A stretch of 63,697 bases of DNA, counting the filler, from Chrysochromulina tobinii (Eukaryota): NCBI GenBank assembly GCA_001275005.1. It is 7 parts of 7 records of this genome, joined end to end, with 100 filler letters (N's around TTAATTAATTAA, not from the genome) between each part and the next. Parts side by side here need not be neighbours in the genome. Positions count along the whole stretch, not along the records: positions 11,368 to 25,386 come from JWZX01000972.1; positions 25,487 to 41,175 come from JWZX01000973.1; positions 41,276 to 52,798 come from JWZX01000976.1; positions 52,899 to 55,321 come from JWZX01000979.1; positions 55,422 to 59,101 come from JWZX01000980.1; positions 59,202 to 63,697 come from JWZX01000981.1; 1 more part is not named here. One strand, 5' to 3'. Made by a program: the position numbers and the translations under genes. Shown here in pieces: positions 18,588-63,697 of the stretch (the stretch's first letter is position 1; the number at the start of each line of letters is the position of its first letter). The notes below the pieces were generated by a model that searched no databases, was not told the DNA's origin, and worked only from the letters and a program-made list of their open reading frames with translations.

Positions 18588-21500
18588 CTCGGCGGCCGCA
18601 CGCGCCGTGTCGAGCGCCACGCTGAGCAGCGGAAGGCAGGGGGTGGCCGGACGGCATGGGTGCGCCACGCGCACACCACGCGAGCGCCATGTGCACGCCG
18701 GTCCCTCCCACACCAGATAGGATCTCGACGAACCGCTGCGAGGGCGTCGCCATCACATGCAGCCCCCCGCCGCTGTGCGCCTCGGACGAGGGCGCGAACG
18801 CGCCGTCTTGAGCGCGCCGTCTTGGGCATGCGGCGAAGCTCAGCGTGGCACGCGCCGTCTCGGCGAGCGCGCCCTCGAGGAACGCCGTGTTGAGCAGTAA
18901 CGGACTCCCCTCAGGGATCACCACGAGCCCTCGGCGCGCCATCAGGCTCGTCAGCTGCGCGAAGACGAGCGCCACCCGATCGGGCAGCAGCGCCGTCGTG
19001 GGCGTATGCGCGCCGTCGTGAGCACGGACGGGAGCCGCGCCGTCGTGGGCACCGCCGCCGCCGCCCTCGAGCGCACTCGGTGGTGCGCCGTCGTGAGCAC
19101 TCGGCGACGCGCCGTCGTGAGCACTGGGCGGCGCGACGAGCAGCGCGACGCCCAGGCGCAGCAGCTCCGCGTCGACCCGTACCGGCGCCGTCGTGGGCAC
19201 GCGGCTACGGAAGAAGGCTGCGACCTTGGCCCGTGCAGCCGCGATGCCGCCGTCGGCCTGGAGCGAGGCCCATCCGAAGGTAATGAGGGAGGCAATCAGC
19301 ATGCACTCAGAGGCCATCAGCATGCAATCAGAGGTGATCAGGTCACCTGGAGCGAGGCCCATCCGAAGGCCTGCCGATCAGCGCCGTCGGCCTCGATCAG
19401 GCTCGCGAAGTAGTCGTTGTGCGTCTTCTCGCACCTGCTCGAGCGCGCAGGGTGGCATTCACAGGTGGCTTTCACATGGCATTTCCAGGTGGCATTCACA
19501 GGTGGCAGTCACAGGTGGCATTTCACAGGTGACACTCCGGCGGCACGCAAGGGATAGACACTCAAGGGACAGACACTCAGGAGGCACTCACAGGTGACAC
19601 CCACTCCGGCGCAGAGTCCATCGCACTCGCACTGAGGCGCCGTCCCGAGCGCGCACCCGTGCTCGAGGAGGAGCGCATGCGCGACGAGCGGCGAGCGCAG
19701 GTGGCCCAAGAGGGTGATGGCGCCCAAGCGCTCGTCCGAGAGGCCGCAGCCCTCTGTGTGGGGAAGCGCGACGAAACGCAACGGCGGCGAGCTCGCAATC
19801 TCGGAGGGTTTCTCGGAGGGCGTGTACTCCTCTTGCAGCGCCGCCGCGAGCGATCTCGCAATCTCGGAGGAGCACAAGCTTGTGGGGAGGATCAACGCCA
19901 CCGACTCTGTAGGGGGCGGCATCATCTTGTCGAGGGGATGGCGCACGCTCAACACGACGCTCGAAGCCGTGCCCAGCACGACGCTCGAAACCGTGCCCAA
20001 AACGACGCTCGAAGCCGTGCCCCCGTGCGTCTCCGTGCTGGCCGTGCTCGTCGCCGAGCTGGCCGCGCGGCTCAACACGGCGCCGTCGGAGGCTGGGGCA
20101 CCCGTCGCCGCCGAGAGATCCTCCGAGATTGCAATCTCCGTGTGCGCGGCTGGGCGTGCGAGGCCCCGGTACAAGGGCGGAGCGGCGAGCACGGCAGAGG
20201 CCGAGGCAGTTAGGTTGGCTAGTTGGAGGGGAGGGCAGGCCCATGAGCCCAGAGGTCCACTCACCGCGCCCGCAGGCGCCGTCCCGAGCAGCGGCGAAGA
20301 AGCGAAGCCGTTGTACCTGATGAGGGAGGCAATCAGTGGCAACAGTGGTCATCACGAGGCCATCTCGCGAGGCCATCTCGAGGCCATCACGCGAGGCCAT
20401 CTCGAGGCCATCACGCGAGGCTATCTCGAGGCCATCTCGAGGCCATCACGCGAGGCCATCTCGAGGCCACGTACTGTGAGTCACGCTCGGTAGTCGCCCT
20501 CTGAACGGCCGCCAAGTTTGGATCAATCTCCCAATTGCGCCAGATCTGGAGCTGGTATTGGCCCGCAGCTTCGCCACGTGTCCGCAGCCCCGAGGCTACG
20601 GCCAGCGTCTGCTGGAAGAGGTGCTCGGCGCGCTCGGACGCGCTTAGGGTGGGGTTGGCCGCGTCCACGTCCATGTCCTTCGCCATGAGCTGGTACCTGA
20701 TGAGGGAGGCCATCAGAAGTCATCAGGGGTCATCAGAGGTCATCAGGAGAGTTCCACCATGAAGGCGTACCTGATGAGGGAGGCCATCGGAGGCCATCAG
20801 GGGATGATGGAGGTCATCAGAGGCCATCCGGTACCCTGATGAGGGAGGCCATCAGAGGCCATCAGAGGCGATGAGAGGCGCTCGGAGGCAAAGAGGGCCA
20901 ACTGATAGCACTCAATAGCACTCGATCGCAATCAATAGCCATCAATAGCCATCAATAGCCATCAATAGCAATCAATAGCACTCGATCGCAATCAATAGCC
21001 ATCAATAGCCATCAATAGCACTCAATAGCACTCAATAGCACTCGATCGCAATCAATAGCCATCAGAGGCCATCGGAGGCCATCAGTGGTCCTCACCGGCG
21101 CGAGGTGACCTGATGAGGATGATCATCACAGGTCATCAGAGGTCATCAGAGGCCATCAGAGGCCATCAGTGGTCCTCACCGGCGCGAGGTGGAGACGATC
21201 TTGATGGTCGGCACGAAGGGGAAGTTAGTGATGGAGCCGTTGCCCGTCGTGAAGTAGATGACGTTACAGCCGGTAGCCACTTGGCCGGCGATGGACTCGA
21301 GATCGTTACCTGCGGAGTCCACGAAGCAGTTGCGATCGATGGCAATCGATGGCCATCAACGGCCATCAAAGGCCATCAAGGGAGATCGACTCGAGATCGT
21401 CACCTGGCGAGTCCATGAAGCAGTAGCCATCAAAGGCCATCAAGGGAGATCGACTCGAGATCGTCACCTGGCGAGTCCATGAAGCAATAGCCATCAAAGG

Positions 21501-23783
21501 CCATCAAGGGAGATCGACTCGAGATCGTCACCTGGCGAGTCCATGAAGCAGTAGCCCGCCCCCAAAGTCCCCGCGCCGTGCCGGGCGTCGCCCTCGGCAG
21601 GGACTGCCTCGGGGACTGCCCGTGGTGGCGGTAGCGGCTCGCCGTACCTGCAATCGGATGCAATCAGATGCAATCAGACGCGATGAGATGCAATCAAAAG
21701 GTCATCAGAGGCATCATCAGAGAGATCATCAGAGGCGTCATCAGAGGCGTCATCAGGAGGCGATTCGCGTACTCGACCACGTGCTCCAGCCGGCACTCAG
21801 GGTGCCTCTTCATCGCCGCCCCGAGGGACTTGAGGGCAATGTTGTAGAGCCCGCGGAACAGGTTGCCGCCAGAAGGATTTCCCTCCGCCGAGGCACCGTG
21901 CGCGTTCGCGTAGTTGTGGAAGCGGCCGACGAGATCGACGAAGCGCCGCGCGGTGTGATAGTCGCGCACCGACTGGAGGACGTACTGCTCGGCCCCAATG
22001 AGCTCATCCGTCTCAGCGAGGACCTGCATGCAGGGCCATCAGTCGCAATCAGCCGCAATCAGTCGCAATCAGCCAGTCATCAAGATTCGCAATCAGCCCG
22101 GCTCTCCGCACGAGGGGTTCGTCAGTTTCGGCGCGCACCGCCGCGCCTCCCGCCTCGATGAGCAGTTTGGATGCCGCCGCGACGAGCGGGTTAGCCGCGG
22201 TGCCTACAATACGAAATGGTGTCCACCAGATTGCAATCAGCCGCAATCAGCCGCACTCAGGCGCACTCAGCCAGAAGGTGCCGATCATATTGCAATCAGT
22301 GGTCGTCCGAGGGCACTCAGAGGGCACTCAGAGGTGGATCAGAGGGCACTCAGAGGGCACTCAGAGGGCACTCAGAGGCAATCGGAGCGCAATCAATCGC
22401 AATCACCCGAGAAGGCATCCGAGCCACCGCACTGCTGCGCGACGATGAGCGACGAGGCGGCGCATGGTACCCTAGCCATCGCACGCAGTGGCGGCAGCAG
22501 CGACGTGGCCGTGCTCGCCGCAGCGCTCAGTTCGGCGCCGAAATCCCGCAGTTGGAGCCGGAGCACAGTGGGACGGAGGGCCGCGAGGTCCTTGGCGCGT
22601 CCGGCGATGGCGGCTGCGGCGACGAGCATCTCGTATGAGAGTCCCGCGCCTGCCTTCGCCGCGGCCACGTCAGCGTCAGTTTCGAGCACGAGCGCGGCGC
22701 CCACGTTTGGATGAAGGAGGAGGCCGAGGAGCGTGCGTACCTGATGAGGATGGTCATCAGAGGTCACCGCCCACGTTTGGATGAAGGAGGAGGCCGAGGA
22801 GCGTGCGTACCTGATGAGGATGGTCATCAGAGGTCATCAGAGGTCATCAGTGATCATCAGAGGTCATCAGTGGTCATCAGTGGCTCGAGGAGGAGGCCGA
22901 GGAGCGTGCATACCTGGGAGAGGCCCTCGGTCGTCATGTGTGAAGACCCTTCGCAATTCATCAGAGGTCATCAGAGGTCATCAGACGTCATCAGACCCTT
23001 CGCAATTCATCGCAATCCATCGCACCCACGCAATCCATCGCAATCAAGGTGGTTTCGCAATCCATCGCAATCAAGGTGGCGCACCAGGTGGGTTTGGTTT
23101 CGCGCCGCGCTCGCGTTCGCGCTGCCGCCATCCTCAGTGTGAGGCAGCGCGACGGCGCCGTCGAGACCGCCGTGCGGCTCCTCGCGCGCGGCTGGCGCCA
23201 CGCGTCGCTCGAGCGCGCGCGCGAACGCGTTGCTGCGCGACGAGAGCGGCAGGATCACGAGGTAGTTGCGCGTGCCGACACCGCGGCTCGCGGGCGCGCG
23301 CACGAAGCCATCGAAGGTGGCGTCGAGGCGGTGGAGCGGCACGGGCGGGCCGGGGACGAAGCTCGCCTCGCTGAGCGCTGCCGGCTTCACGTAGTCGGCG
23401 AAGTTGGGCGTGAAGCCCGGCTCGAGGCCGCGCGGTAGCAGTGCGGCGATCACCTTGGCATTGCGCAGCCACTCGCCGGGCGCGATGGGCCGCAAGGCCT
23501 TGCCAAAGGGCTCGCCCCACGAGGTGATGAGCTCGCCGAGGGCGATGGGCGCCACGGCGAAGCGGTGGCCCTCGAGCACGCGCGCGCTCAGCCGGATGGT
23601 CGTTCTCGCGTGGGAGATGAGCTGGCCCGCCTCGAGGTCCTCCTTGGCGATGGCGGCGTTGTCGAGCGGCGCAGGCAGCTGGGCGACGGTGTCAAAGGCG
23701 AGTGGAACGGCCGAGGGCGGCGGCGTGAGAGCGGAAGCCGGGGTCGACGATCTTGGCTCCTCGTACGCTAGTTTGATCGGCAT
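18342..23783 (-). CDS. UxaA/GarD-family (altronate/galactarate dehydratase-like) protein with SAF domain and a partially duplicated UxaA domain; 10 exons
   Basis: Inferred exons 23783-23085, 22740-22407, 22203-22139, 22023-21773, 21647-21532, 21309-21180, 20696-20475, 20316-19657, 19434-19347, 19257-18342. Joined frame gives [13 protein letters not shown] (SAF), [91 protein letters not shown], and a second [10 protein letters not shown]...LLEHGCEKTHND. One apparent +1 frameshift in the G-run 18639-18643. Confidence 0.85.
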
Positions 23784-23903: not shown

Positions 23904-25386
23904 ATGCCACCTTCCTCCGGCTACTCCGGCACGGGCTCCGGCTCCGGCTTCAGCCACGACTCAGGCGCGTCGGGCGACGAGGATGCACCGCCATGGGCGA
24001 CTCCTCGGTCATCCGCGCGCTCGGCGCCTCGCCCGGCGGCCGCTGCCGTCGCGGCTCCGCCACCGAAGACAGCGCCCGGCCCACCGGCCGCACCCGCGCC
24101 TCCTGATTCACCGTCAGCGTATAGTGGGTACAGCGAGTACAGCGGGTACAGCGGGTACAGTGACCGCAGCGTGGAGCCCTCGCCGCAGAAGCCAGCCAGC
24201 CGCTGCCGCCAAGGCAGCGCCGTGGACGGAGCCATCCGCCGCAGAAGCCTGCGCCGCCGCGCCCGCCGCGCCCGCCTGAGGGCGCGCCGGCGCCGCTGCC
24301 GGCGGACGCGTACACGGATCGTGGCTACTCGGAGTGCTCGGACTACGAGAGCCAACAGCTCGCGTACGAGGAGCGTGCCATCAACTGGGAAGAGGAGATG
24401 CTCGAGGCACAGGCGGAGGCGCAGGTGCGGGCCGAGGAGGCGTGCTGATGGAGAGTGCTGATGGGTCACCACTGGCCATCAGAGGTGCTGATGGAGTGCC
24501 TCTGATGGTCATCACCGAGTGCCACCGAGTGCCCGAGATGGCGCCCGTGATGGCTCTCACTCGCACACTAATTCACACACACACTCACTCTCTACCGCGC
24601 AGGCGCGTGCTGATGAAGAACTCATCGAGGAGCGCATCGCCGACGCGAAGAACCTCTTCAGCCACAGCAAGCTGGGCGCTGTCCTGGGCGGCGCCCCATC
24701 TCCGCTGGCCTTTAAGGCCGCCCAAGACAGCGCCTTTAGGGCCGGGCAGAGTGCATCCGCCGCGGTGCCGCCCAGGACAGCGCCCATGATGGAGGCGGTG
24801 GAGGCAACGGACGCGAAGGTGCTCGGCACGGCGCCGCCACAAGCAGCCGGCGCGGCGGCGAAGGTGCTCAGTACGGCGCCTCCACAGACGACGTTCACAG
24901 GCCCTCGCACCGCGAGTGCCACGAGCGCCGTACCGGGCGGATCGGTTGCATCGGAGCAGACGGCGGCGGCGGCCAAGGGCAATCCGACCAGCAAGCTCCC
25001 CCCGAGCGCCGTACCGGGCGGGTCCGACGACGAGTACGAGTACGAGTACGAGTACGATGAGGACTCGGAGGAGGACGAGGAGGAGGGCGAGGAGGACGGG
25101 TCGCCGGCGCCAGCCGCCAAGGGCGCGGCATCACTCACAGCAGTGCCCAAGACGGCGCCGGCGCCAGCCGCCAAGGGCGCGGCATCACTCACGACATCGA
25201 GTGGAGTGGCCCAACGGGGAGCGACCGTGCCCACGACGGCGCCTGACGCCGCGCCCTCGTCTGCTCGAAACTCCGACTCCGACTACGACGAGTACTCGGA
25301 CTCGTACTCGGACTCCGCCCGCGACGACGCGGACAGCGAGCGGGCAATGATGGCACCGCCGCCGCCACCGCCGCCTCAGCCGCCCC
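23904..25386 (+). CDS. Low-complexity Ser/Ala/Pro/acidic protein, 3' truncated, one intron
   Basis: MPPSSGYSG...; an inferred intron at 24425-24602 joins EEMLEAQAEAQ|ARADEELIEERIA; apparent frameshift near 24190. Confidence 0.45.
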
Positions 25387-28900: not shown

Positions 28901-30729
28901 GTTGACATCCAGGCCTGAGCTCAATGGCGAGCGAGCGGTCATTGAGGCACCTGCGGCTGAGGGACGCTATCAAGTGGCAGTGCCACACGGTGGCGGCAAG
29001 GCGCTGCGCATCCGGCTGAAGCGTGAGGCCCTCACACCAACGCCGATGGTCGGTGGCGTAGACCCGAGGGTACTTCCGAAGTGGCCAGGGCTAGCATGCG
29101 GCCCCTCCGTGCGTTGCATGCTCGATGGCCAGTGGAAAGACACCGACTCACTGATCTGGTCCTTCCAAAAGGCGATTCCGGCAGGCGTGAGCGTGGTTGG
29201 AGGCGGACCGAGGGATGGCGGGGCAGACCAGTTGGCGATGAGGGCGCAAATGGCTGAGATGATGAAGATGGACCCGAAGCTTGCGAGCAGCCCGATGGCG
29301 CAGCAGCTGCTACAGCGAGCGATGATGGGGACGCAGGCGTCCAACCTGACGCCGCACACCCAATGGCTCTGGTCGCTCGCGCACATCGTCTCCGACTACC
29401 ACAAGGACACTCCGAAGGGCGTCTTTCGCTTCCTTCTTGCGCATGCCAAGAGCGGCGGCGAGATTGTGCGCGGTGGGGGCTCGGCCGAATGCCTGATCAT
29501 CGATGTCCTCTCGCCCGCGCTGGCGTGCCCACCAGAGATCGAGACGCATTCGACTGTTTGGGGCGACTCGCCTGACGGCATGCAGAAGAGAGGCCGGGCC
29601 GCGAGTGAGCCGTTGCTCCCAGTTCGATACTGGCACATTCCAGACGATGACGCGGATCGCTCGAAGCGCCAGCTGGCTCTTATGCAGGCTGGCCCTCACG
29701 AATGTGCGATGACGCGAGCGGCTGTAGCGACCAAAGCTGAACAGGCCAAGGAGCGTAGCAAGCGGGACAACGGATCCGTCACTGGACAGATCTGCGTGCA
29801 AGCGGAGAGTGTGGAGGAGGTGCACTCGGCACTAGCCATGCTGCAGGCGAACGAAGCATTACTCTCGCCGCAGTACCGCGTCTTCTTTGACAGTGCGAGT
29901 CGCTCCAATGGCCCCGATTGCATGCTGATTGCCCCCGATTGCATGCCGATGGTCCCCTCAATCGCACGCAGGTGCGAGTCGCTTCAACGGCCCCGTCCAA
30001 TTCCGACCCTCGTTTCTCGTGCCCCCTCCCCATCCCACCCCGGAGCCACTCAAGCGATGGTTGACGTGCACTGGCTGCGACGCCAAGCAGGCGAGCGCCG
30101 TCGCTTCCTTCTGCAAGTGCAGCCAGTGCACGACGCATTGGTACTGCACGCCCGAGTGCCGAGATCAGCACAGTCCGGTGCACAATCTCGTGTGTGGCGC
30201 GAGCATTGCGACACTCCGTGGAGCGCTCACCAACGCACGCCCGTCTCTTCTCATTTCCACGGTGCCTCCGGATTCCTGCATCGGCAAGTATTGCCCAACG
30301 TTCAACTTCCAGGGCGCGGCGTCGCCTATTGGGGTAGGTGCAATGGACACAGGGAACGTGGACAAGTACCTCGTGAAGGCGGTGGCGCCGATCAATTTGC
30401 ACGGGAACCAGTGCTTCCTAGTCAAAGTGCAGCCGCCAGGGAGCGGCGAGGGTGGCAGCGGCCCGTGTGGCTTTCCTGGTAGGGCATTGTTTACATCCAG
30501 CGCAGGCGAGGGCAGCCCTTGGGCATGCATGGTCTACGACGAACCACGCAGTCTGACCAACGTCTACCTGCCCTTGGACACGCCCGGCATCGAGGACCTG
30601 CTCGCACTTATCAAGCGAAGCGGCATCCGCGTCGCAAGTGGGGCGTACAAAGCTTACTGCGAGGCCAAGCGAGAGGGCCCGTGCCTACGCATTTACATCG
30701 ACCGATTGGCACCACAGCAAAAGTGGTGA
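25959..30729 (+). CDS. Multidomain protein: ZUP1/ZUFSP-like C78 peptidase + SH3-like modules + ankyrin repeats + MYND zinc finger; intron 29893-29971
   Basis: C78 motifs WDCGYANI, IEAAWREGFDP, PLYFQHDGHSCSIVG and LLVRDP; ankyrin GSTALHNASYNG and GNTPLIAACAAGH. Removing the 79-nt intron joins FFDS|ASRFNGP into the frame with CTGC...CSQC...YCTPECRDQH...HNLVC (MYND). Confidence 0.75.
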
Positions 30730-35077: not shown

Positions 35078-35266
35078 GATCGGCGTTCTATAGGAAAGAA
35101 AAGCTAGCGTCGCGTGTCGTCGAGTAGAGACATAAAGTTGGGTATTTACCGCCCCCCCCGCTTGGTCGCGGGGAATGCGTTGTTCCATGTGTGCTCGGAT
35201 GAAGTCCACTGTCCAGAATTCGGTGGGAACGCAAAGGCCCTGAACAATTAGAACAAAGGGTCTAGG

Positions 35267-35672
35267 GATTTACCCAAGGGGGTAGGGGAGGGATTAATAT
35301 CTGGATTTGCACCCCTTCCTCATACCCTGATTACAAACTGAATGATTTACCCAAGGGGGTAGGGGAGGGATTAATATCTGGAACTGGATTTGCACCCCTT
35401 CCTCATACCCAGGGATTATACAAACTGAGTGATTTACCCATAACCCAAGGGGGTAGGGGAGGGATTAATATCTGGATTTGCACCCCTTCCTCATACCCTG
35501 ATTACAAACTGAGTGATTTACCCAAGGGGGTCGGGGAGGGATTAATATCTGGATTTGCACCCCTTCCTCATACCCTGATTACCAACTGAGTGATTTACCC
35601 AAGGGGGTAGGGGAGGGATTAATATCTGGATTTGCACCCCTTCCTCATAGAACCCTGTATTACAAACTGAGT
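35267..35672. repeat. ~77-bp minisatellite, 5 copies
   Basis: Unit gatttacccaagggggtaggggagggattaatatctggatttgcaccccttcctcataccctgattacaaactgagt starting at 35267, 35344, 35431, 35515 and 35592. Confidence 0.95.
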
Positions 35673-45324: not shown

Positions 45325-45474
45325 GCTGAACGAAAGAAACGAGTCGCCTCTGCGCTCAGGGAAAATGACAGTTTTCATCGCGGATTGCTCCGCAGTCGTT
45401 GAGCAAGTGCGACGACTCACTTGCCGCCGGCAGGGAGGTGGTCGACACCGGCCAATCGGCGTTGCGCATCAGCT

Positions 45475-48400
45475 ATGCCCGCAGGCATCAGGTCCAAGGA
45501 CGCACCCACCATGCGCACGCTGCCGTCGCATCTTCGCTATGCGAAGCTGTCGGCCGATCTTCCTGCGGAGCCGAAGCGGACGCCCAGCGAGCTCTCGGCC
45601 GAGCTTCATGGCCTGGCCAAGCCGGCGGCGGCGCTGCAGCGGCCTCGCGTCGTCGCGCTGCTCAACATGTCGGAGTTCACACACAATGTGGACTCGGTCG
45701 TACCGCTCGACGAGCCGATCTTCCAGCCGAGCCCGCCCGAGGTCGTCTTTGACGCGTTTGAGGCGCACAGCAAGTACACAGCCACCCTGCGCTTCCGCAA
45801 CAACGACAATGTCAACCGGCGTCTCAAAGTGCTCAAGGTCGATTCGGTGCACTTCGAAGTGGTGCCGCCCAAAGGCACCGCCGCGGGTGGCAGCAAGGTG
45901 GCGCCCGGCATGGAGGTCGCTTATCAGATCATCTTCACGCCGCGTGCTGAGCACGACCACGCGTGCGAGCTCGTGTGCCTCTCGGAGCGCGAAAAGTTCG
46001 TCGTGATGATCTCTGCGCGCGGCCCGCGGCCGTGCTTCGAATTTCCCGACGGCGTCGACTTTGGGCTGCAGCCGGTGCGCGCGAACGCATCCGAAGCCTT
46101 CCTGCTGCGGAACACAGGAAAGGCGGATGGTCGCTTCGTGCTTTCGGTGCCGGCGCCCTTTTCAGTGACGCCGTCCGATGGCGCCCTCAAGGCGGGCGGG
46201 GCGATGCAGCTCACCTTCGACTTCAAGCCGGAGCTTTGCGGCGAGTACGCCGAGGAGCTCCTGATCGAGTACGACTCGGGCGAGCGCTGCTTCGCGCGTC
46301 TCGCAGGCGCCTCGAGCGACGTCGAGGTGGGCCTCGAGCGCTCTCTGCTCGTGCTCGAGCCGTGCTACATCTCGCTGCTCTCGCAGACAACGCTCAAGCT
46401 GCACAATCGGAGCGACGTGAAGGTCCACTTCTCGTGGAAGGCTCTGCGCTCCGCTGCCGAGGACGAGCAGCGGCGCACTGACGGCCTCATCGCCCTCGAC
46501 GACGCAGCTGGCTCGATGCCCGCTCACGCGCTGCGCACGCAGCGGCGGCTCGTCGAGGAGGACCCGCTCCCTTTTGCGGACGCCATCTTCGCAGTAGAGC
46601 CGCTCGAGGGCGAGATCTTCCCCAACTCGTACTGCGAGCTTACCATCGCCTTCCGCCCGCAGAACGCGGGTGAGGCTGCCGTGACCGCTTACTGCGAGAT
46701 CACCGGCCGCGAGACGCGCCTGCCGCTCACGCTCCAAGGGCGTGGCCTCGGCCCGAAGGCGCTGTGGCTGTACGATTCGCTCGACATCGGCGACGTGTAC
46801 GTCAACTCGGAGCACAAGTACGAGGTGGTCCTCGAGAACCATGGTGATATCGACTGCGACTACAGCCTCACGCCCAACGACTCTCTCTTCGCCTCGCGCT
46901 TCTCCTTCTCGCCCACCGCGGGCCACCTGCGCTCGCGCCAGCAGCAGATGGTCGAGGTGCGATTCCTCTCCGATCTGCTGGGCGAGCTCAATGAGACCTT
47001 CGTGTGGAAGCTGCATGGGCAGCCCGACCCGCTGCCGCTCGTCCTCAAAGGGCGCGTGGTCGCGCCGTCGTTCCACTTCGACGACTCGGCCAAAGAGGGC
47101 ATCCACTTTGGCGATGTGTCGCTCGGCTTCCTGAACAGCGTGGACTTCACGCTGACCAACACCTCCGAGATCCCGATGCGCTTCCGGCTGCGCATCCCGA
47201 ATGAGCACGGGGAGGAGCACGATCAGTTCGATGTGCAGCCGAGCGCGGGCATCATCTTGCCGCATGGAGAGCAGCAGCTCCGCCTCAACTTCATCGCCAC
47301 GGCGGTCTCCAAGTACAATCTGTCGATGCTCGTCGACGTCGAGGCGGTGGGCGATTCGCTGCTCTCGCTCCCCATCACGGCCATGTGCCTCGCGCCCGGC
47401 ATCAAGCCCTCGGCCGATGCGCTCGATTACGGCGACGCCTTCATCAACCACACCTACTCGCTGCCGCTCACCATCTTCAACCCGTCGCACCTGCCTGCCA
47501 AGTTTGAGGTCATCGACGAGGCGCCGATGCTCAAGGCGATTGGCGAGCATGAGGTGACGCCGCACAATGGCCAGATCGCGGCCAAGGGGAAGGTGGACGT
47601 GGTTGTCAGATTCACCACGCGCCGGCTCGGCCCGATGTCGCTGCCGCTCTACGTGCGCATCGTGGGCCTCGAGGAGGCGGCCTTCCAGGTGGAGCTGAAT
47701 GCAACATCCATCGGGCCCAAGGTGGTGCTCGCGCAGCCCAAGCTCGACTGGGGCAAGGCGCCCGTGCTCACCGACGTGCCTCGCAGCCTCGGCCTCGACA
47801 ACCAGTCGCTCATCCCCGCCGTCTTCAAGGCATTGCTCCGCCGGAGTGATGGTCCCTTCGCACTCACCGAGAAGGAGTTCATCATGGCGCCCGGCGAGAA
47901 GCGCGAGCTCGTGCTCACCGCACACACAGACGACACCGTCAAGACGACCAACGACCTGATCCTGCAAATCAAGTACGCGCCGGAGGTCGTGGTCCCGCTC
48001 GTGGCGACGGGCATTGGCGCAACGATCTCGGCGTCGCGCAACATGGCGAGCATCTCCTTTGGGGAGTGCTTCTCTTCGCGCATCCTCAAGGAGGAGTTCA
48101 CGCTCGAGAACAAGGGCCGCCGGCCGCAGGTGCTCACGTGGGTCAACCAGGTGACCATCCCACCGCCCAAGGACAAGAAGAACCCCGATGCCGAGGTGAA
48201 GATGCCCATTCCCGCCTTCAGCATCACGCCCGATAAGGCGATCATCGAGCCGGGTGCCTCGTGCGTCTTCACAGTACAGGCGCTCTCGAAGACTGCGGGC
48301 GAGCGCATGGAGAAGTTTGTGTGCGCGGCCCAGGTGCAGGGCGGCCAGGGCAAGCCCGAGCCTCTGTACGAGACGGCGGCCTCGTGCACCTTCATCGAGC

Positions 48401-51400
48401 CGCTCGTCGAGGCGACCCCCTCCGTCCTCGAGTACGGGTACTCCTACAAGCCGGGCGACGAGGCCGCGCCGGTGCCCGCGCAGACGAGGCGCCTCAGCCT
48501 GAAGAACACGTCTCCCCTCGCGCTCACGATGCTGCTCAAGACGCCGCCCCCCTTCTCGGCGTCCAAGTCGGAGATCTTCCTCGCCCCCGACGACGTGGGC
48601 AATGTCATCATCTCCTACGACCCGAACTACCCCGGCGATCTCGTCTCGCGCGCCTTCACGGACACGCGGCTGCAGCTGGAGTTCAAGGAGCACCCGCAGA
48701 AGGTCTTCGTCAGCCTGCAGGCACAGACGCACTTCCCCAACCTGGCCATGAGCCTCACCGAGGGCGCCTTTGGCTGCCTGCTCAACGAGTCGCCCGCCAA
48801 GCAGGTGATGCAGCTCACCAACACGTCCAAGGTGGGTGCGTACTACGCGTGGACCTTTGCGCAGGGCGAGGGCGTGTCGAACCCGTCCGAGCCGCACCTC
48901 GCATTCGACATCCTTCCCATCCGCGGCTACCTCGAGGCAGGTGCGAACGAGACGATCGAGCTGCTCTTCAAGGGCGGCAGCTTCGCCAAGGCGCGCGCCA
49001 TCGCGTTGTGCGAGGTCGTGGGCGGCCCCACGTACGAGCTGCCGCTCTCGGGCGACACCTCCGAGATCAAGTACTCGCTGTCCGAGTCGCGCGTCGATTT
49101 TGGCATGCAGTCCTACGAGCGGGTCGAGGAGCGCGAGCTCTTTTTGCAGAACACGGGCAAGGTGCTCTTCTCGATGACCCTCGACAAGTCAGTGCTCTCG
49201 CGCAAGAACGTGGTCGAGGTGCTTCCCGAGAAGGCCGACGTCAAGCCCGGCGAGAAGCTCAGGATCCTCGTGCGCTGCCTGGCCGGGCTGCCGACCAAGC
49301 TGACCGAGTCTTTCTTCCTCAACATCGCCCACTTCCCACCCGAGGAGGTCGTGGTCACCGTCGAGGGCATTTACCCGCGCATCTCCCTCAACCTGCCGCG
49401 TGATCGCTCGGAAAAGTACGCCGGGTTCTTCGTCGAGGCCGAGGCGAAGGTCGCCGCCGAGAGGGCCAAGGAAGAGGCCGAGAAGGCGGGCGTGCCTCTC
49501 GAGCCCGAGGACGCGCCGCTCGCCGAGCTCACGCCGGCCGAGGTGTGCACCAAACTGAGCGGCAGCTTCGCCGGCTTCAAGTCGCTGCTCGAGAGCTGGG
49601 GCAAGCTCGTCGAGGGCGCGACCATCGGCCGCGACGACTTCCGCATCGCGGTGCTCTCCACACTTGGCAGCACCGCCACCGCAGCGGCCGCCAACGGCAC
49701 CTTCACTCACCTGACGGGTGGCGAGGAGGCGGTCGATGTGACCGGTGGCGCTGCGCCGGCGGCCGAGCTCGGTGTCGCCGTGCTGCTGGAGGCGTGCAAG
49801 CCACCCAAGACGAAGCGCGTGGACTACGTCCGAGTCGCGGCTGGCGCTGGCGAGGGCGGAGAGGTCGTTGTCGCCCAGGTGGGCGCGCAGCTGGACGCCG
49901 AGGAGGACGAGGACGAGCCGGGCTCCCCGCGCCCGCTCGGCACGACGCTCGGCGAGACGGCCGGCACGATCGCGTCACCGCCGTTGACGGGGCGCGCGTC
50001 GATGCGCTCCGGCATGTCGGGCCTTCGCGTCGCCTTCAATGACTCGGACGTGGATGTCGAGGCTGAGCGCCTCTTCCTGTCGGCGTATGCGAGCAATGTG
50101 CTCTCGCGCCACGGCGCCGAGGGCGGCCTCCTCATGCCACCGAACACAGGCGCGAGCCGTGCCTCCTCGGCTGGTAAGGGCCGGTACGCGCCCACCCTCG
50201 AGCCGCTCCCGCCGGTGCCGCCCGACTTTGTGCTCTCGACGTACGTGCTCGACTTTGGCCACGTCATCAAGGGCACGCAGAAGAAGAAGGTCTTCAAGCT
50301 GCGCAACGCGGGCTGGAACTACGTGTCGCTCGACATTGACAAGAACGCGATCGCGCCCTACGGCCTGCGCGTCGAGCCCGACAAGCTCGTCAAGCTCCCT
50401 GGCCTGCCCGACCCCGAGACGGCCGAGTTCACGGTCACCTTCGCCTCGAAGGCGCCCAAGGTGGGCCTCGGGCGCATGGTCCAGGAGCTTCGTCTACAGC
50501 TTAAGCCCGGGCCGCCCGTCGCCATCATCATCAAGGCGAACGTGACGATCCCCGAGGTCAAGGTCACTGTGCCCACGTCGATCACCGTGAGCAGCGTTGA
50601 GCCTAACTCGATCGACTATGGCAACGTCATCGTCGGCCAGTGCTTGACGGCCACGGTCGAGCTGTACAACCCCAAGGAGGTTGTGGCCGAGTGGAAGGTC
50701 AACCCGCCGCTCGAGAATGCCAAGGACTTTGACCGCTTCGTATGCCTGCCCGACTCGGGGAACCTGGCGCCCGGCGCGCGCCTCCAGATGCAGATCCGCT
50801 TCTCGCCCAACACCGAACGCCCCTTCGGCGTGCGGCTCATGATCAAGGTCGCCAACAACAACAAGCCCGTCTACCTTAACGTCATTGGCCAGGGCAAGGA
50901 ACTCAAGGTTGCCACGCAGCCCGACAGCGTGATGGTGCCCGCAGTGCAGCCGCATGCCGACGCGGCCTCGGCCTTCTTCCGACTGACCAACCCGTCCGAC
51001 TACCCGATCGAGGTGTACTCGTACGACTTTGACGGGTTGGTGGACGATAAGGAGCACGCCTTCCTGCAGTACGAGGCCATGGTGCGTGAGGACACGTCGG
51101 CGCCCACCGTGCAGAATGACGCGCTGCTGCTGCCGCTGCGTGAGCCGGGCGATCCCTTTTGGCAGTCGATCAGCGACGGGTACGAGGAGAGGAGAGCCGC
51201 CGCCTTGGCCGCGGAATTGGGGGAGGAGGTCCCGCCTCCACCGCCCGCGCCGGAGGCGGTGGGCGAGCTCGAGGCACCTCCGGAGCCAGTGGAGCCCAAG
51301 CAGCGCACGCTCATCATGCTCACGCCCGCGCCGCTCGCGCGCTCGGCTGAGCTCGCCAAGGAGCTCGCCTTCGCGTACCAGGTGCCCGCAGTGCTGCTCG

Positions 51401-52560
51401 CCGAGGTGGTGGCCGCTGAGGACAGACGGCTGCGCGACGAGGCGTGGGCCGCTCAAGAGGCGGCGCGCGAGGCCAGGGTGGCTGATGCGATGGCGGCGGC
51501 TGAGGCGGCGGGTACGGAGTACGTGCCCACCGAGGAGGATGAGTATGTGGAGCCCGAGGCGCCGCCAGCCCCGCTCGATCCGGCGAACATCAGCGGTTGC
51601 ATTGCTGCCGCCCTCTCGCGCGAGAAACGGCCCGATGGCGCGGTGATTGTGATGCCCGAGCAGCCCACGGTGTTTGCAACCAAGGAGCAGCTCCTCGAGG
51701 CCGTCGTGCTTGCGCTCGGCTACGCGCCACCGCCGCCGCCCGAGCCGCCACCGGATCCGAAGGCTAAGAAGGGCGCGCCGCCGCCGCCGCCGCCGCCGCC
51801 ATCGGCCGGTGAGCCGGTGTGGTCGTTCGCGCTCCAGACCACCCTGAAGGATGTGCCGCCACTGGCCGAGGGCGACGAGGGCTATGTGCCGCCGGCCGAG
51901 GGCGAGGCCCCAGCGCCGTGGCTGCCCAAGGGCGAGGAGACTGTCGAAGCGCGCGCGGCAGCACAGCTGGCGGCCGAGATCGACGCGATGCCCAAGCTCG
52001 GCCCGATCCCCGACGTGGAGGAGGAGGCGTACGAAGCGCTCGAGCCCACGGCGCGCGAGCACTTCGAGAGGAAGCGGCGCGAGCACCGGCGGCGCCTCGC
52101 CGTCGCCGAGGCCAAGGTGGCCGCGGCCAAGATGGCGTTTGCCTTCCGCCTTGTGCAGCTGCAAGAGGCGTCCGCAAGCTTCGCGTCCCTTGAGCAGGCA
52201 GCCTCGGCTAAATTCTTCGTCGCCCCGCCGGAGCCGCCCCCGCCGGAGCCCGAGCCTGAAGGGGGATGGCCCGAAGGCGAGGCGCCCGCGCCGTGGCGGC
52301 CGCCGAGAGGGCTGGCAGGCCACTATACGGTCGACGCGTCGCTGCCGCTCGACGCGGTGATGGAGCTCGTCGAGGCCTGCCTCTTTGAGCGGCCGCCCCC
52401 AATCCCCGACGTGCCGCCACCTCCCCCTATCCCTCTGCCCTTTGGCAACCAGATCCTCAAGCGCACGAAGCTGCGCGCGCAGCGCCCCGTGCCTACTGGT
52501 CTCCTCGACGATGCCGGCCGTGGGCGGCTGTACACGATCCCGCCGCCGCCGCCCAAGCCC
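45475..52560 (+). CDS. HYDIN: Hydin (axonemal central-pair protein), N-terminal ~2360 aa, truncated
   Basis: Tandem ASH/Ig-like domains ([10 protein letters not shown]...RRLKV...SKVAPGME...[52 protein letters not shown]). Intronless over 7 kb. Confidence 0.93.
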
Positions 52561-52563
52561 GAT

Positions 52564-52798
52564 GTAATGGGGTGCACGCTCGGAAAGTTCGTGATGGTCA
52601 CCAACTGCGGCGACCAGATGGACTTCCGCTCGCTCGGCAACATTTACAAAGGTGTGGCGATGGCCGGTCTCTGGAGTTGCTTCGACGAGTTCAACCGCAT
52701 CAACCTCGACGTGCTCTCGGTGGCGGCGCAGCAGGTGGGCTCCGTGCTCATGGCCGTCAAGATGGGCGCCCAAATGTTCCAGTTCACAGACGGCCAGA
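52564..52798 (+). CDS. Fragment of an axonemal dynein heavy chain AAA1 domain, in frame with Hydin
   Basis: [56 protein letters not shown]...FQFTDG is the canonical dynein AAA1 segment after Walker A. Confidence 0.9.
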
Positions 52799-55421: not shown

Positions 55422-55564
55422 CTGCTCATGCTCTCGGCAATCAATAAGATCAAGCCGGTCGAACTCTTTGCAAGGATGATCTCAGTGAGCTGCCTTGATG
55501 GCCTCCCTCATCAGCTGCCTTGATGGCCTCCCTCATCAGCTGCCTTGATGGCCTCCCTCCTCAG

Positions 55565-58500
55565 GTGAGCGGCGGGGTGAACGGCAGGGTGAACGCGAGG
55601 GCGAAGGCTCGAGCTCCGACATGGCGTACGTGATGCCTACGCTGCTCATCGCACTCAAAGGCCTCCTCAAACTCCTCTTGGCCAGTGGTGAGCGAGGGCA
55701 GCGATTCCAAGCCGAGGCGGAGGAGTGCGGTACGCTGATTGCCTCCGATGTCATATGAGTGCCTCTGATGACCTCTGATTCCAAGCCGAGGCGGAGGGGT
55801 GCGGTACGCGAGCTGTTCGCCTCTCATGACCTCTACTTGCCTCTTATTTGGCCTCTATGACCTCTAATGACCTCCCTCATCAGGGCTGCCCACGCGCATT
55901 CTGAAGGCGATCGATCTTGCCGGGCGCTCCGGCGGGCTTGTGGCCGATGGCGTCGGTGAGAAGGTGTATCATTTGGCGACGGAACTCCACGTGAAGCACT
56001 TCACCCCGGTCAGCGGTGACATGGTGCTCGTCACGGCGCTCGGACCGACCTACACGGCCCTCTGATGACCTTTGATGACCTTTGATGACCTCTGATGACC
56101 TCAGATGACATCTGATGACCCCTCGCGATGGCTCCCCTCATCAGGTGCTCGTCGAGGCACTCGACGTCGTCAATGCGCGCCTAGCCGCCGCACGGCTGCA
56201 AAAGGAGCAGCAGGCGGCGGAGCGGGCGGCCGAGGCAGCCGCCTCTGCCGAGCCCCGTGCGGCCGTCGATGAGCTCGATTCTCTCCTCATGGAGCGCACG
56301 CCCGCAGCCGCTAAGAATGCGTCTGCACCGATGCCACCTGCGTCGTAGTCGTCATTGGCGGCGGCGAGGTCGGCGGCGGCGGCATCGGCGGGGCGGGGGC
56401 GGAGGCCACCGCCCCTCCCGCCTCGACCTCTGACGTCCGGCCCCCCTTGGTGGTTACGCCGTCATCCGAGGGTGAGGCACAGCCGTTGCCTCGAGCAGCC
56501 CGCGCGCGCGCCATGCGCCCCCATGCGCCCATTGATTTGAGAGGGCGCGACTGCTGCCGCCCATCGCGTTGCGCGCCATGTACACCGCTCTCGAGGCCTC
56601 GTTTGGTGCGGACGCGACGTCTCGGATCGACGACAAGTTCAAGAGCGCCGACCCGCAGCTGCGCCAGGGCGTGTGCCATCTACTGCGCAAGGAGTACCAG
56701 AAGGCGTACGTCTGATTGCCTCTGATTGCCTCTAATTGCCGCGGAGGATCTTCTGATTGCCGCCGTGTACCATGCCATGACCCTTTTGATTGCCTCCCTC
56801 ATCAGGTACAAGCTCTGCGACCAAACGGAGGACCCGCGCGACCAGATCTACTCCGCACTCTCGCAGCTCAATGAGGTACCTTGATTGCCACTGATGAGCT
56901 CTGATGAGCTCTGATGACGATCGATGAGCTGTGATGACGCCTGATGACGCCTGATGGCCTCCTTCCTCAGGGCTGGGACCCAGTCGAGCCGCGTCGACGC
57001 ATCGAGGTGTACCTGCGCATCTTCTCGAGACGCCGCTCTAGATGCCGCAGGCCGCCTTCCACCCCGTCGTACTACCTCGCGCACAAGCTGCTCAAGCCCG
57101 CCAAGGAGCACCGACTGCGTGCATCGCTGTACCTGCGCACGTTCGCCCTCTTCGAGGCAGAGGCGGCGATCTGGCTCGACCCAAATAAGGATACGGTCGA
57201 GAAGCTGATGGAGAACGACGACGACGATCCGCTCGAATCGGCATCCGCGTCGCTGACGAAGGCGCAGTGGGAGCGGTACGTCTGATGGCCTCTGATGGCC
57301 TCTGATGGCCTCTGAGGATGGCTGATTGCCTCCCTCAGAAGGTACAAGCTCAAGCACCCCGAGATTAAGTCGAGCGCGATGGACAAGTTGATGGCGATGG
57401 TTGGCCTCGAGCGCATCAAGCGCGACGCGCTCAACGTCGCGTACTCCGTCGAGCTTGCAAGCCTGAAGCCGGTGGACGCTACCGCCGACGTGAACCGCCA
57501 CTTCGTCTTCATCGGCAACCCGGGCACGTCTGATGGCCTCTGATTGCCCTTGATGGCCTCTAATGATGGCCCCTGGTGGCCTCTCTGATTGCCTCTAATG
57601 ACGGCGGATGGCCTCATTTATCAGGTGATTGCCCCAGATGGCCTCTAATGACGCCTCTAATGACGCCAGACGGCCTCTATCATCAGGTACGGGCAAGACG
57701 GAGGTGTCGCGCCTGATGGCCAAGATCCTGCACGACTTCAAGCTGCGCTCGAGCTCCGAAATACGGAACACCACCGGCTGTAATCTGCTCACGGGACGGC
57801 GCGGACGAGTTCAAGAAGATGCTCGAGGAGGTCGACGGCGGCGTGCTCTTCATTGACGAGGTGTACCAGCTCGACCCGAAGAACAACAAGGACGGCGCCG
57901 ACATCATGAACCTGCTGCACACCTTTGCGGAGGATAAGCGTGGTGAGCGCTCGGTTGTGCTTGCGGGCTACCGTGATGAAGTCGAGACGTTACTCTCGTT
58001 CAACCCGGGGCTCGCGTCGCGCTCCCCAAACACGTGAGTGCGCCTCTGAGTGCATGCACGTGCTCACCACGGCGCCACCAAGCACGTGAGTGCGCCTCTG
58101 ATTGCATGCTACCTGCCAGCTGATTGCCACTGATGACCTCCGATTACGCCCCTCGTCAGGTGGGTCTTCGAGGACTATCTCGAGCCCGAGCTGCGCTCCA
58201 TCTATCACAAGATGATGAGCGACCGCAAGATGGTCGTCGAGTCGGCAAGCTCTTTTGGCGTGAACGCGACAACCTGATTGCATGCTGCGTGCATCGCTGA
58301 GTGTGCATCGCTGAAAAAGTGCATGCTGATTGCCCCCCTCATCAGGCAAGCCCGTCGGTCGCGTCGATCGTCGCCTCACGCCTCGCCTACGGTGTGGGGC
58401 AGCGCGGCTTTGGCAACGCGCGCGCGGTGCGCCGCCGCCAGATCCTCAACCTCTGATGACCTCTGATGACGCCTCTTGATTGCACCCCTTGATTGCACCC

Positions 58501-58880
58501 CTTGATTGCCACCAGATTCTCAACCTCGTAATGCTGCGTGGCTGAGTGCATGCTGATTGGCTGCCTCATCAGGTGCGCAATCAGATCGAGCAAGCTATCA
58601 AGCGACAAGAGGAGCGCCTCTCGATGCTCATCGACGGAGGCGAGACGCCGAGCGCTGAGAGATGGCGACGACCATCTCGCGGGAGGATGCGCTGGTACGG
58701 AGGCCACTGATGAGCAATGATGATCTCACTGATGAGCACTGATGATCCCATTGATGAGCAATGATGATCCCATTGATGAGCGCTGATGATCCCACTGATG
58801 AGCACTCTGATGACGCCTCTTGATTGCGCCCCTCATCTGGGTGCCAAGCCGGTGCTCGACAACTCGCCTGAGCTCAAGTG
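55565..58880 (+). CDS. Internal part of a multi-exon gene with a CbbX/CfxQ/SpoVK-type AAA+ ATPase domain; several frameshifts
   Basis: Inferred introns 55730-55883, 56024-56144, 56706-56805, 56876-56970, 57276-57341, 57524-57686, 58034-58159, 58260-58345, 58427-58572. Spliced motifs AMDKLMAMVGLERIK, HFVFIGNPG|TGKT, GGVLFIDEVYQL, VVLAGY, NPGLASR, FEDY and GFGNARAVRN. Confidence 0.8.
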
Positions 58881-58884
58881 GTCG

Positions 58885-59101
58885 CGCCGCCCTCGCCGCC
58901 GCCGTCCTCGCCACCGCCGCCCTCGCCGCCACTGTCCTCACCGCCGTCGCCATCACCGCCGTCGCCCTTGCCGCCGCCCAGTCCACCACCGCCATCGCCA
59001 ACACTCTCGGCACCGCCGCCCTCGCCGCCGCCCAGGCCGCCAACGCCCTCGCCGCCGCCATCCTCGCCGCCGCCCAGGCCGCCAACGCCCTCGCCGCCGC
59101 C
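58885..59101 (+). repeat. (SPPP)n coding-type low-complexity repeat
   Basis: ccgccctcgccgccg units reading PPSPPPSSPPPP, abutting the AAA gene. Confidence 0.8.
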
Positions 59102-61246: not shown

Positions 61247-61810
61247 CTACAACTTCGGCTGGAAGAAGCCCTTGAACTCGTGTGGCGTGCGGCTCTTGTC
61301 ATAGTGCGGCGCGGCGAGGACCTGGTTCTTGACTTTGACGAGGTCCGGGTCCGTCTCCATCGAGCCCAGGAACGTTTTCATGTCCTCCAAATCGTGGAAA
61401 ATGTAGCGCGCGGCGAGCCAGCCCTGGCCGGGGCAGAAGGACACCTCGAGGTCCTTGACGCCCGGCTTGCTGCGGACCGTCTTCGCGATGCCCGACTTGT
61501 CAAACCACTCGGTGACCTCGGCCATCTTGGTCTTGTCAAAGGGGTACTGGATAAACCTGCGCGGGCGCGCACATCATCCAGACTTGCGCTGTGAGGCCTT
61601 GCAGAGTCGCGCAGCCGCCCGCCAGAAAGGCACCACCTCTCGGCAAATGGTCACGGCAGTTCCGCCTTCGCGGCCGGTAGCTGCGAGGCGGCGGCTGCAA
61701 CGCATCGGGAAGCTACGCATCGGGAAGCTCGCTCACCGGGTCATCGGACGGGCATCTTTCGACATGCCCCGGGTGAGCTTGGGCATCATGGTCAGCGCGC
61801 GACGCAGCAT
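61247..61810 (-). CDS. Small hypothetical protein with mitochondrial-type presequence; intron 61736-61557
   Basis: MLRRALTMMPKLTRGMSKDARPMTR|FIQYPFDKTKMAEV...FFQPKL*; a GT-AG intron keeps the frame. Confidence 0.7.
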
Positions 61811-61944
61811 TTTCTTGCGCACGTCGGGGAAAAGCGAGCGGCTCGTTGACTGAACGATGATTCGATTTGAGTTGATTCACGAAAAAACACGCTCCAGAGA
61901 GACGCCTCGTCACAGAAACCCTCGAACTCGTGAGCGGGACAGGC

Positions 61945-63697
61945 TCACCGCCTCGGCCACCGCTCGATGTAGCGCGCGGCGATCGGCTGGCCGCGCTTGC
62001 GCAGGAAGCTGACAAGACTGTCCGTGTGCGGCGCGAAAAAGGTGCGGAGCTCCCGCAGTGTGTCCGGCTGCACGCCGGCACGACGCCCGTCGGCCTTCGC
62101 CCCCCCTGCCTCGGCCCCGCCGACGTTCCAATTCCACTTCCAGTTCAAAACGAGGCGCGGGAAGGGACCGAGCCCGAGGAAGCGCCCGATGCGCGCGAGC
62201 GCCCGGGACGGCGCTTCGGCGAACTCGTCGAGCGTGAGGACGAGCGCTTGGGAGGACGCGAACGAGTGCAGCCAGCTGCGCAGCTGGGGCTCGTAGAGCG
62301 ACTGCGCGATCAAGGGAGGCCATCAGTGAGGTCATTTTCTGGGGCATCAAGGGGCCATCAAGAGGTCATCAAGAGGTCATCAAGTTCATCAAGGGGCAAT
62401 CAAGAGGTCATTAAGGGGCAATCAATGTCATCAAGGGCCATCAAGGGGAACATAAGAGCAATTGACGGAACCGGAGCGAGAGGCAAAACGCGCCGTGATG
62501 AGCGTTACTCGGTGACAGTGGGGGGATGCCACAGTAGATGGGTGGCCATCAGTGGCAATCACGTCATGTCAGAGGTCATCACGGGATGCCACACATGGGC
62601 GGCCATCAGTGGCAATCACGTCATCAGTGGTCATCACGTACCTGTGCGACGACGCATGCATGAAAGCCGCATGCAACGGCCACACACTCGTTCCACAACT
62701 TGGACGTAAGGCGCCGTGTTGGTGCGCCCGTCACGGCGCCGCCCATCACGGCGCCGCCCGCGCCCGCGGTGGCCACGCCCGCGGCGGCGCGCGCGTGGAA
62801 GCATGCATGCAACCGCCTCGCTTCGCCGAGCAACCGCGCGTCCGCCGTTACGTTTGGGCCGGCGTACAGCGCCGCCCAGCGCACGCCACGGCGCGCGAGT
62901 TTCGTCAGCATCCCGAGGTGCGAGATCGCGCGAGCTTCGGGGGCACGCAGCATGATGAGCAAGCGCACCTGCAACCGGGGAGATGCAGGGAGATTGTGGG
63001 AGATGCAACCATGGTGAGCAAGCGCACCTGCAATCGAGGGAGGCACTCGGGGAGGTAATCAGGGACGTAATCAGGTAGGCAATCAGGGAGGCAATCAGGG
63101 AGGCTCTCGAGGGAGGCACGCAGAGGGAAGCACGCAGTGGCATTCCGTCGCAATCAGTGGCAATTAGTGGCAATCCATCGCAATCAGTGGCAATTAGTGG
63201 CATTCCGTCGCAATCCGTGGGACTCTGCCGCATTCAGGATCCGAGTTTCGTCAAGCGGGTGAGAGGAGTTTCGTCACTCAGGATCCGAGTTTCGTCAAGT
63301 GGGGGGAGTTTCGTCACTCAGGATCCGATTTCCGTCAAGCGGGAGAGGGGAGTTTCGTCGCTCAGGATCCGAGTTTCGTCAAGCGCGCAGCTCACCGCCG
63401 CTGGGGAGGGCAACACAGCCGCCATGCGCCACGCCGCCGCCGGTCGATGCAGCATCGGCGTCGCGTCCAAAGAGAGAGTTTCGTCAAGCGGGAGAGGGGC
63501 GACTCTGCTTCCCCCACCCCCACCCCCACCCCCACCCCCACCCCCACCCCCACCGACGGCACGGCGGTTGGCGCCGCCGCCATCTGCACCGGCATTGCGG
63601 CACCCGCAGTCTGGGTATGCAGCCTGTGGGGAAACGGCCTGTTTGGGCGGTGAGTGCCCTTTCCTAATTTGGTTGGGAGTGTCCTGTTTGGGCGGTG
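61945..63697 (-). CDS. Sulfotransferase (Sulfotransfer_1/HS-3-O-ST-like), 5' PAPS-binding loop not seen; introns 63395-62969 and 62641-62302
   Basis: Spliced LDATPMLHRPAAAWRMAAVLPSPAA|VRLLIMLRAPEARAISH (3'-PB motif) ... VVAQ|SLYEPQLRSW...RIGRFLGL...LRELRTFFAPH. Confidence 0.8.
63235..63385. repeat. ~43-bp tandem repeat inside the sulfotransferase intron
   Basis: caggatccgagtttcgtcaagcggg.gag.ggagtttcgtcact about 3.5 times; its core matches exon sequence at 63476-63499. Confidence 0.85.
63610..63697 (+). repeat. 88-nt terminal direct repeat, right copy
   Basis: Identical to 59202-59289. Confidence 0.97.

Follow-up and report, generated by a model that had tools for sequence, protein, structure and literature searches.

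Where new introns obtain their sequence is a long-open question. The Rogers model of intron gain has them arise by tandem duplication, reportedly with vertebrate ATP2A1 as a case. In Daphnia pulex, break-repair neointrons carry repeats of 4–12 bp, and for most of the inserts no source is known (PMC4202315, available sections). Recent surveys attribute bursts of intron gain to transposons, and an Introner family with 4-bp duplications is present in a marine Chrysochromulina metagenome-assembled genome (available parts of PMC9860276 and PMC12130899); yet the alga Chrysochromulina tobinii scores 0 families in the 2025 introner survey (PMC12130899, with 12 of its 14 supplements), and in the available part of the 2022 survey C. 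tobinii and C. parva stand in the genome list, C. tobinii, among the rows listed, only there (PMC9860276). Near-identical intron pairs within the same gene occur in Oikopleura, and a reverse-splicing model has been put forward for Micromonas (both as summarised in the available part of PMC3879977). Replitron-1 of Chlamydomonas combines orientation-specific dinucleotide targets with variable duplications and fuzzy ends; the available part of its description does not report intron creation (PMC10288648). Here we analyse a 63,697-nt stretch of the C. tobinii genome ('the window'), composed of seven contigs with N-linkers between them, together with related metagenome loci. One protein of the window shares a 90% cluster with a C. 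parva protein, so the host is a haptophyte of the C. parva/tobinii type. Many introns here are insertions bracketed by a 10–60-base duplication of their own exon, and intron gain in this alga is real, widespread, still active, break-repair-like, and likely draws on neighbouring introns. This intron pattern is not described in the available parts of PMC2784329, PMC4580454 and PMC8469720, and a literature search that covered mainly openly available papers showed no description of it. Introns of Emiliania reportedly contain repeats of 10–11 bp; the search did not turn up that report.

Introns are bracketed by copies of their own exons

An initial annotation of the window had noticed that inferred introns begin with a copy of the next exon's start or end with a copy of the previous exon's end, around a stereotyped repeat filler. 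The five repeats it cited are present on direct comparison (23/23, 16/16, 22/24, 36/42 and 16/19). One of them lies in the 222-nt intron 21310–21531, listed further below; the other four belong to the following introns, whose support is frame restoration:

19258–19346, minus strand: 89-nt intron in which the last 23 nt of the previous exon recur at the 3′ end and provide the AG (23/23 identity; frame restoration; bridged by none of the RNA pieces listed).
29893–29971, plus strand: 79-nt intron whose first 24 nt repeat the start of the next exon (22/24 identity, 29893/29972; frame restoration).
37052–37338, minus strand: 287-nt intron in an ankyrin gene (Pfam ankyrin; frame), with a 16-nt arm (16/16, 37323/37036) and nested acceptor-spanning duplications.
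56024–56144, plus strand: 121-nt intron with a 19-nt arm (16/19, 56024/56145) in a decayed multi-AAA gene, at the same position in locus L044.

In addition, 146 motif-bearing stretches were taken from metagenome contigs by scanning for the common 3′ end of such introns in 3 of 64 parts; some 3100 are estimated in total, and the analysed loci amount to 0.9 Mb including overlaps. We designate these motif-selected loci L0xx and related proteins P0xxx; X1 is a DNA run, and X12, X14 and X15 are the sources of RNA contigs.

For 201 distinct terminal CTCATCAG acceptors we asked whether the beginning of the following exon recurs upstream in an anchored copy (score at least 10). Such an arm was found at 61 acceptors, a set that includes a few plain tandem arrays, as against 0–1 in each of five shuffles (~200 sites each) and 3 of 197 sites for a segment 70 nt further downstream. 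The 61 arms measure 10–60 nt, most commonly 19; 20 are perfect and 55 begin with GT or GC. Exon position +1 is G at 190 of the 201 sites and position +2 is T at 150. A lower threshold (score at least 6), a loose test of the short GTAC and GTGC repeats, was reached at 112 of 201 acceptors, versus 15–40 in shuffles. Among 439 filler clusters, a direct repeat on both sides (score at least 16) was found for 160, versus 6–8 in three shuffles. Identity between intron ends and exons is far above background, the outcome that the reading of the initial annotation required. A wider set (score at least 13) holds 186 repeat-flanked clusters, 104 of them lacking the common 3′ end. Once filler-like and distant repeats are removed, 72 repeats remain, termed class II; AG|GT lies within 28 of them (10% in controls) and AG|GY within 36. 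This breakdown therefore indicates two productive classes plus a background of secondary events.

All 54 arm-bearing introns hold a filler, of 22–271 nt, and nearly all filler starts differ; the duplications range from 13 to 60 nt in 27 different lengths. Compared over their full length, none of the 54 is at least 80% identical to any other (median best 0.72; 20 of 54 for the filler alone), and one 97/101 intron pair exists outside this set. Inverted repeats of at least 6 nt occur at the ends of 7 of the 54 introns and 21 of the 54 fillers, counts without a null, the latter arising because CTGATG is the complement of CATCAG. Within the common 3′ end, the last 20 nt are strongly conserved and able to form a small CTGAT(G)/(C)ATCAG hairpin, of 5–7 bp in 147 of 201 cases; the commonest variant folds weakly (−1.3 kcal/mol as RNA). 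By codon score, 161 of 200 cases lie in sense orientation, similar to known coding controls (144/181), and 91% exceed a score that 22% of intergenic windows reach. Summed filler depth is ~58,800 versus ~35, a figure of abundance and not of copy number. The motif and filler gave 0 matches in viral contigs and 5 single matches in prokaryote genomes, about chance level by rough arithmetic.

Splicing and frame restoration in a UxaA-like gene

Introns of this kind with transcript evidence lie in one gene, with the following features beside the 89-nt intron above:

18345–23783, minus strand: UxaA/altronate dehydratase-like gene with nine introns (tblastn and a spliced model co-linear with P0001, P0002, P0005, P0009 and P0010; Pfam GD_AH on P0001).
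19435–19656, minus strand: 222-nt intron with a GTGCG 5-nt repeat and a different repeat filler (frame model).
20317–20474, minus strand: 158-nt intron with a GTAC repeat and the common 3′ end (skipped in X12 record 11; frame model).
20697–21179, minus strand: 483-nt intron that contains nested duplications and shows the common 3′ end four times (spliced out of X12 record 11 and of X15 record 24; frame model).
21310–21531, minus strand: 222-nt intron built on a duplication of ~42 nt that has an AG|GT inside it, with two further copies nested within (36/42 identity, 21290/21512; frame model).
21648–21772, minus strand: 125-nt intron with a GTACG repeat (skipped in X15 record 25; frame model).
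22024–22138, minus strand: 115-nt intron whose 5′ start is a diverged copy of the next exon (VRAETDE versus VLAETDE; frame model).
22204–22406, minus strand: 203-nt intron with filler (frame model).
22741–23084, minus strand: 344-nt intron inside which lie copies of the beginning of the next exon (acceptor test and frame model).

Removal of the nine GT–AG introns regains one reading frame, and that of 19258–19346 gives back an 11-residue peptide seen in homologues. Four introns are spliced in RNA contigs: direct skips cover those of 158, 483 and 125 nt, and record arithmetic in X12 record 11 implies the removal of 21310–21531 (222 nt). Because two X15 contigs run into introns, one of them 25 nt into 22024–22138, the RNA set must also hold unspliced molecules or DNA. 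Eight of the nine introns fall in conserved sequence that is ungapped in five homologues and the ninth in a variable linker; the last intron site lies beyond the reach of P0005 and P0002. The homologous open reading frames (ORFs) are 966–1056 aa long, on contigs up to 9.8–37.7 kb, and appear uninterrupted, the unspliced state of their gene calls being presumed. From sequence comparison, the data suggest that the gene may have been laterally acquired, with introns younger than the transfer.

Two further observations concern this gene. Its named homologues are bacterial, at 45–52% over the first exon. At position 18635, DNA run X1 has one letter fewer, which may explain an apparent frameshift near the gene's end.

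A segregating intron reveals recent gain

Direct evidence for gain comes from a metagenome locus. L040:9535–9613 is a 79-nt intron made of a 28-nt duplication and a 51-nt filler, without counterpart in L072, another haplotype that is 96–99% identical to L040 and has its other introns unspliced; the empty site there holds one copy of the repeat. The duplication comprises 28 nt plus a shared AG, and 30 letters are ambiguous in the RNA joints. RNA contigs of X15 (with no differences from L040), X12 and X14 skip the intron, those of X12 and X14 possibly deriving from empty alleles. Together with the four introns of the UxaA-like gene, this bears out the suggestion that transcripts splice at sites of this kind.

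In a protein check on 23 related proteins (the main cluster having at least 15 of 49 members among those listed), 6 begin inside the intron. The empty site is read through by 5 same-type ORFs and 3 sister-lineage ORFs (110/120 identical), starting in the upstream intron, and by 3 remote ORFs with intron-like starts; the remaining 6 proteins are uninformative about the DNA. Because same-type, sister-lineage and remote ORFs all read through it, the empty state is ancestral, and the single-copy empty site that the initial annotation named as a check thus exists in L072 and is common to outgroups. Assembly artefact is not the cause where this was checked: X1 holds the filled L040 allele without differences and, as an independent DNA assembly, each copy of the 23-nt repeat at 19258/19347 with its own flank.

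Elsewhere in the same alignment, L040:8434–8733 differs from L072 by several intergenic indels of 100–180 nt without filler. BLAST returned further similar locus pairs (L024/L032, L026/L076, L033/L128 and L105/L126).

Filler is probably copied from neighbouring introns

The filler of the segregating intron matches a fixed intron that lies 448 nt upstream. Across the loci, one 16-mer of this filler is confined to these two introns, as a same-haplotype variant; P0196 represents a filled allele that encodes the exact 3′ end of the donor intron, and AG|GTGA is common to donor and target.

A second case involves positions 55422–58900 of the window, a decayed duplicate of the intact multi-AAA gene in L044 (92–99% identical), whose decay marks are frameshifts, one stop and two damaged acceptors. 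Besides 56024–56144, it holds:

55725–55883, plus strand: filler intron, with one additional nested unit in L044 (alignment to L044).
56706–58159, plus strand: five filler introns (56706–56805, 56876–56970, 57276–57341, 57524–57686 and 58034–58159), common to L044, with differing filler length.
58245–58345, plus strand: 101-nt intron that duplicates in full another intron of this gene, 2.9 kb further downstream (L044:7645–7745 versus L044:10513–10613, 97/101).
58427–58839, plus strand: two filler introns (58427–58572 and 58695–58839), the AG of the latter mutated in the window copy (comparison with L044).

L044:7645–7745 and L044:10513–10613 sit at non-homologous protein positions of one gene. 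The 101-nt intron starts with a duplicate of its donor's exon rather than its own, and at both junctions short matches reach into the donor exon. Because the copy carries the donor's exon-derived arm, copying went from L044:10513–10613 to L044:7645–7745. Between the L044 and window copies of the gene, filler length differs by whole units.

A second intron motif, beginning GCATGCAAGTGCTCACCACGG, has four copies in one gene (L044:8514–9792) and is also present in L015, L037, L077 and L078, with a partial occurrence near 58050–58080; it possibly forms a second locally spreading family.

Across loci, filler sharing falls with distance. Same-strand pairs share private 20-mers in 8 of 343 cases at 250–600 nt and 6 of 615 at 600–1500 nt, then in 2 of 720 and 2 of 799; the rate between loci is 0.15%. 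The bin under 250 nt (34/254) mixes pieces of one intron and was set aside, and the opposite-strand control (1/14, 0/24, 0/169 and 4/992) is too small for use. At their 3′ ends, neighbouring introns likewise resemble each other more closely than introns taken at random (123 introns, p=0.01). The initial annotation was right about the structure of these introns and missed the source of their filler, which in the traceable cases is a neighbouring intron of the same gene.

Break repair as a proposed source of introns, and its rivals

Polymerase theta makes templated insertions. With moderate confidence, we propose that staggered breaks are repaired by priming at (A)G|GT microhomology and copying part or all of an intron close by in the same gene, and that selection keeps the splice-neutral products. 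A broken end would pair with the acceptor junction of the donor over a short (A)G|GT microhomology of a few bases, copy 20–270 nt of branch-point-like CTGAT repeats and rejoin; the staggered ends would become the flanking duplication. A class I intron would owe its AG to the CTCCCTCATCAG end of the donor and its GT to the duplication, while in class II both splice sites would come from AG|GT inside the duplication. Within exons, survival would be limited to products with exact splicing. Staggered-break repair fits because the duplications vary, filler starts vary, there is no end-to-end family and donors are local, and it accounts for the data better than the other option of the initial annotation, a short mobile cassette with fixed ends (no fixed ends; 0 of 54 introns at 80%). 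A double-strand-break origin we infer from intron anatomy only.

Either the DNA of the gene or its unspliced transcript may serve as template; since the template includes exon flanks, it is probably not the excised lariat. Sense, genic copies and the rarity of inverted filler hint at a transcript template or same-strand slippage. A class I intron would leave a GT-starting exon after AG and would thereby prime the next event, in a local chain reaction. One may extend this, tentatively and with more doubt than belief, to a self-propagating, transposase-free chain in which unspliced transcripts template repair and the AG|GT and filler of each intron prime the next, giving ongoing, sense-strand-confined gain on a genome scale.

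Several points weigh against break repair from local donors. The loci were picked by the motif, so similarity between them is inflated and they are not a sample of all introns. Five pairwise alignments gave only one presence/absence difference (L040/L072), and the traced donors are two only. Among pairs sharing private 20-mers, 298 of 350 are not same-strand and in cis, being mostly between loci, which would also be compatible with trans copying or low-complexity convergence. Strand-blind DNA repair would predict neither the near absence of inverted filler (antisense motif nearby in 13 of 373 clusters) nor that cassettes rarely precede intergenic-like sequence. Overlap at the arm-to-filler junction is weak (at least 2 nt in 10 of 50, without a null), and the G at −1 (40/54) and GT at +1 are also favoured by splicing, which confounds the microhomology. 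No repair enzyme has been identified, no search for one having been made.

Among the rivals, the best placed, a real one though unlikely, would treat the common 3′ end as the terminal part of a non-autonomous mobile element. An enzyme acting in trans, either a Replitron-like HUH endonuclease or a long interspersed nuclear element (LINE) reverse transcriptase, would move it and leave variable duplications and a fuzzy second end. The conserved last 20 nt with the small hairpin that they can form (147/201) would suit such an element, as would the mostly between-locus sharing of private k-mers, and Replitron-1 leaves similar insertion marks, with one C. tobinii Replitron locus reported in the available part of PMC10288648. 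Yet 104 of the 186 repeat-flanked clusters lack the common end, the commonest end variant is only weakly folded (−1.3 kcal/mol), none of the 54 arm-bearing introns is 80% identical to another over its whole length, the copies lie within genes and in sense orientation, and local donors are traceable. In favour of such an element, duplication lengths near 15–20 nt resemble those of non-long-terminal-repeat (non-LTR) insertions. We also considered retroposed copies of a short interspersed element (SINE) or other non-LTR kind, and rejected them given the 104 of 186 clusters without the common end and the sense, genic copies.

It is improbable that the introns are old throughout, their arms being later duplications or junction-templated repairs within repeat-rich introns and the empty sites losses. 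This would explain why L044 carries an exon-end-plus-donor duplication that the window copy lacks, and why the common 3′ end ahead of the arm in 19258–19346 is defective. It would also suit the 33 of 72 class II repeats without a usable AG|GY, mostly nested in existing introns by eye, which count against gain as their origin. Against it, the polymorphic L040 intron is absent in sister and remote lineages, the copied 101-nt intron bears another site's arm, and the UxaA homologues appear uninterrupted, as far as their gene calls can be taken as unspliced. Later remodelling of old introns is nevertheless probable for a subset, and in some cases the duplication is a secondary event inside an existing intron. 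For 19258–19346, gain and secondary event are two cases that are not separable; perhaps it is an old intron remodelled later. Here the initial annotation, otherwise upheld in its reading of intron gain, had not told true gains from nested secondary duplications.

Most improbable, and already contradicted for both traced cases, is an origin by simple tandem duplication, of AG|GT or of exon segments that start with GT, with independent slippage expansion afterwards and selection toward the same branch-point/acceptor motif: it would explain the AG|GT enrichment in class II repeats and the whole-unit filler differences between gene copies, but neither the 51-nt filler matching a neighbour in the segregating allele nor the 97/101 copy with a foreign arm, and class I requires an imported AG.

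Other features of the window

Further introns of this kind and other sequence features were noted:

24425–24602, plus strand: likely filler intron in a neighbouring gene, boundaries by eye (sequence; 3′ end checked).
62302–63395, minus strand: two filler introns (62302–62641 and 62969–63395) in a gene that resembles a sulfotransferase by eye (sequence reading).
11715–17195, minus strand: open frame of 1826 codons and low complexity that contains ankyrin repeats, shows strong GC skew and may belong to a mobile element.
35260–35670: AT-rich intergenic tandem repeat, unit ~75 nt.
52560–52798: the contig of a long gene turns abruptly into dynein-heavy-chain-like sequence (by eye), a possible misjoin.

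Introns are strongly clustered: the multi-kilobase coding stretches 45400–52600 and 6103–8856 are intron-free, versus 9–12 introns in two other genes.

Comparison with known systems

The pattern points to a class of intron gain overlooked by similarity-based screens and mobile-intron surveys. Local copying would also explain why some genes have 9–12 introns and multi-kilobase others none, and a transcript-templated chain reaction, if true, would be a new category of intron gain.

Like Replitron-1, the introns described here show variable duplications, one precise and one fuzzy end, a dinucleotide target and a terminal hairpin, but the ~52-bp conserved ends with direct repeats given in the available part of PMC10288648 are not seen, nearly all filler starts being different. 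The tandem-duplication model has its parallel in class II, which uses AG|GT within a duplicated exon segment (28/72 versus 10%); unlike that model, the copies are separated by a foreign filler that carries branch-point motifs, and the intron is never duplicated exon alone (0/54).

With the Oikopleura and Micromonas cases, as far as the available summary goes, our introns share sense-only genic copies (161/200 sense; 91% above the score that 22% of intergenic windows reach) and a near-identical same-gene pair. Reverse splicing predicts seamless whole-intron insertion, whereas most copies here are partial and the target is duplicated. We therefore rejected transposition by reverse splicing: duplications occur at 61 of 201 acceptors and the traced L040 gain is a partial copy.

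Introners resemble this system in comprising many related introns that carry one splice site and co-opt the other from the target duplication at novel positions, and presence/absence at a novel position is seen in L040 versus L072 and the ORF classes. Unlike Introners, there is no end-to-end family, duplications are long and variable, and donors are local; a DNA-transposon Introner family is ruled out by the 0 of 54 end-to-end identities and the lack of a fixed duplication length.

Closest are the staggered-break neointrons of Daphnia, which, in the available sections of PMC4202315, likewise segregate, show at one end a direct repeat of the exon that adjoins the other, and later acquire internal repeats; the polymorphic L040 intron has just such an exon-end repeat at its opposite end. 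Unlike in Daphnia, the repeats here are 10–60 nt long, the filler is stereotyped, and two cases trace to a neighbouring intron.

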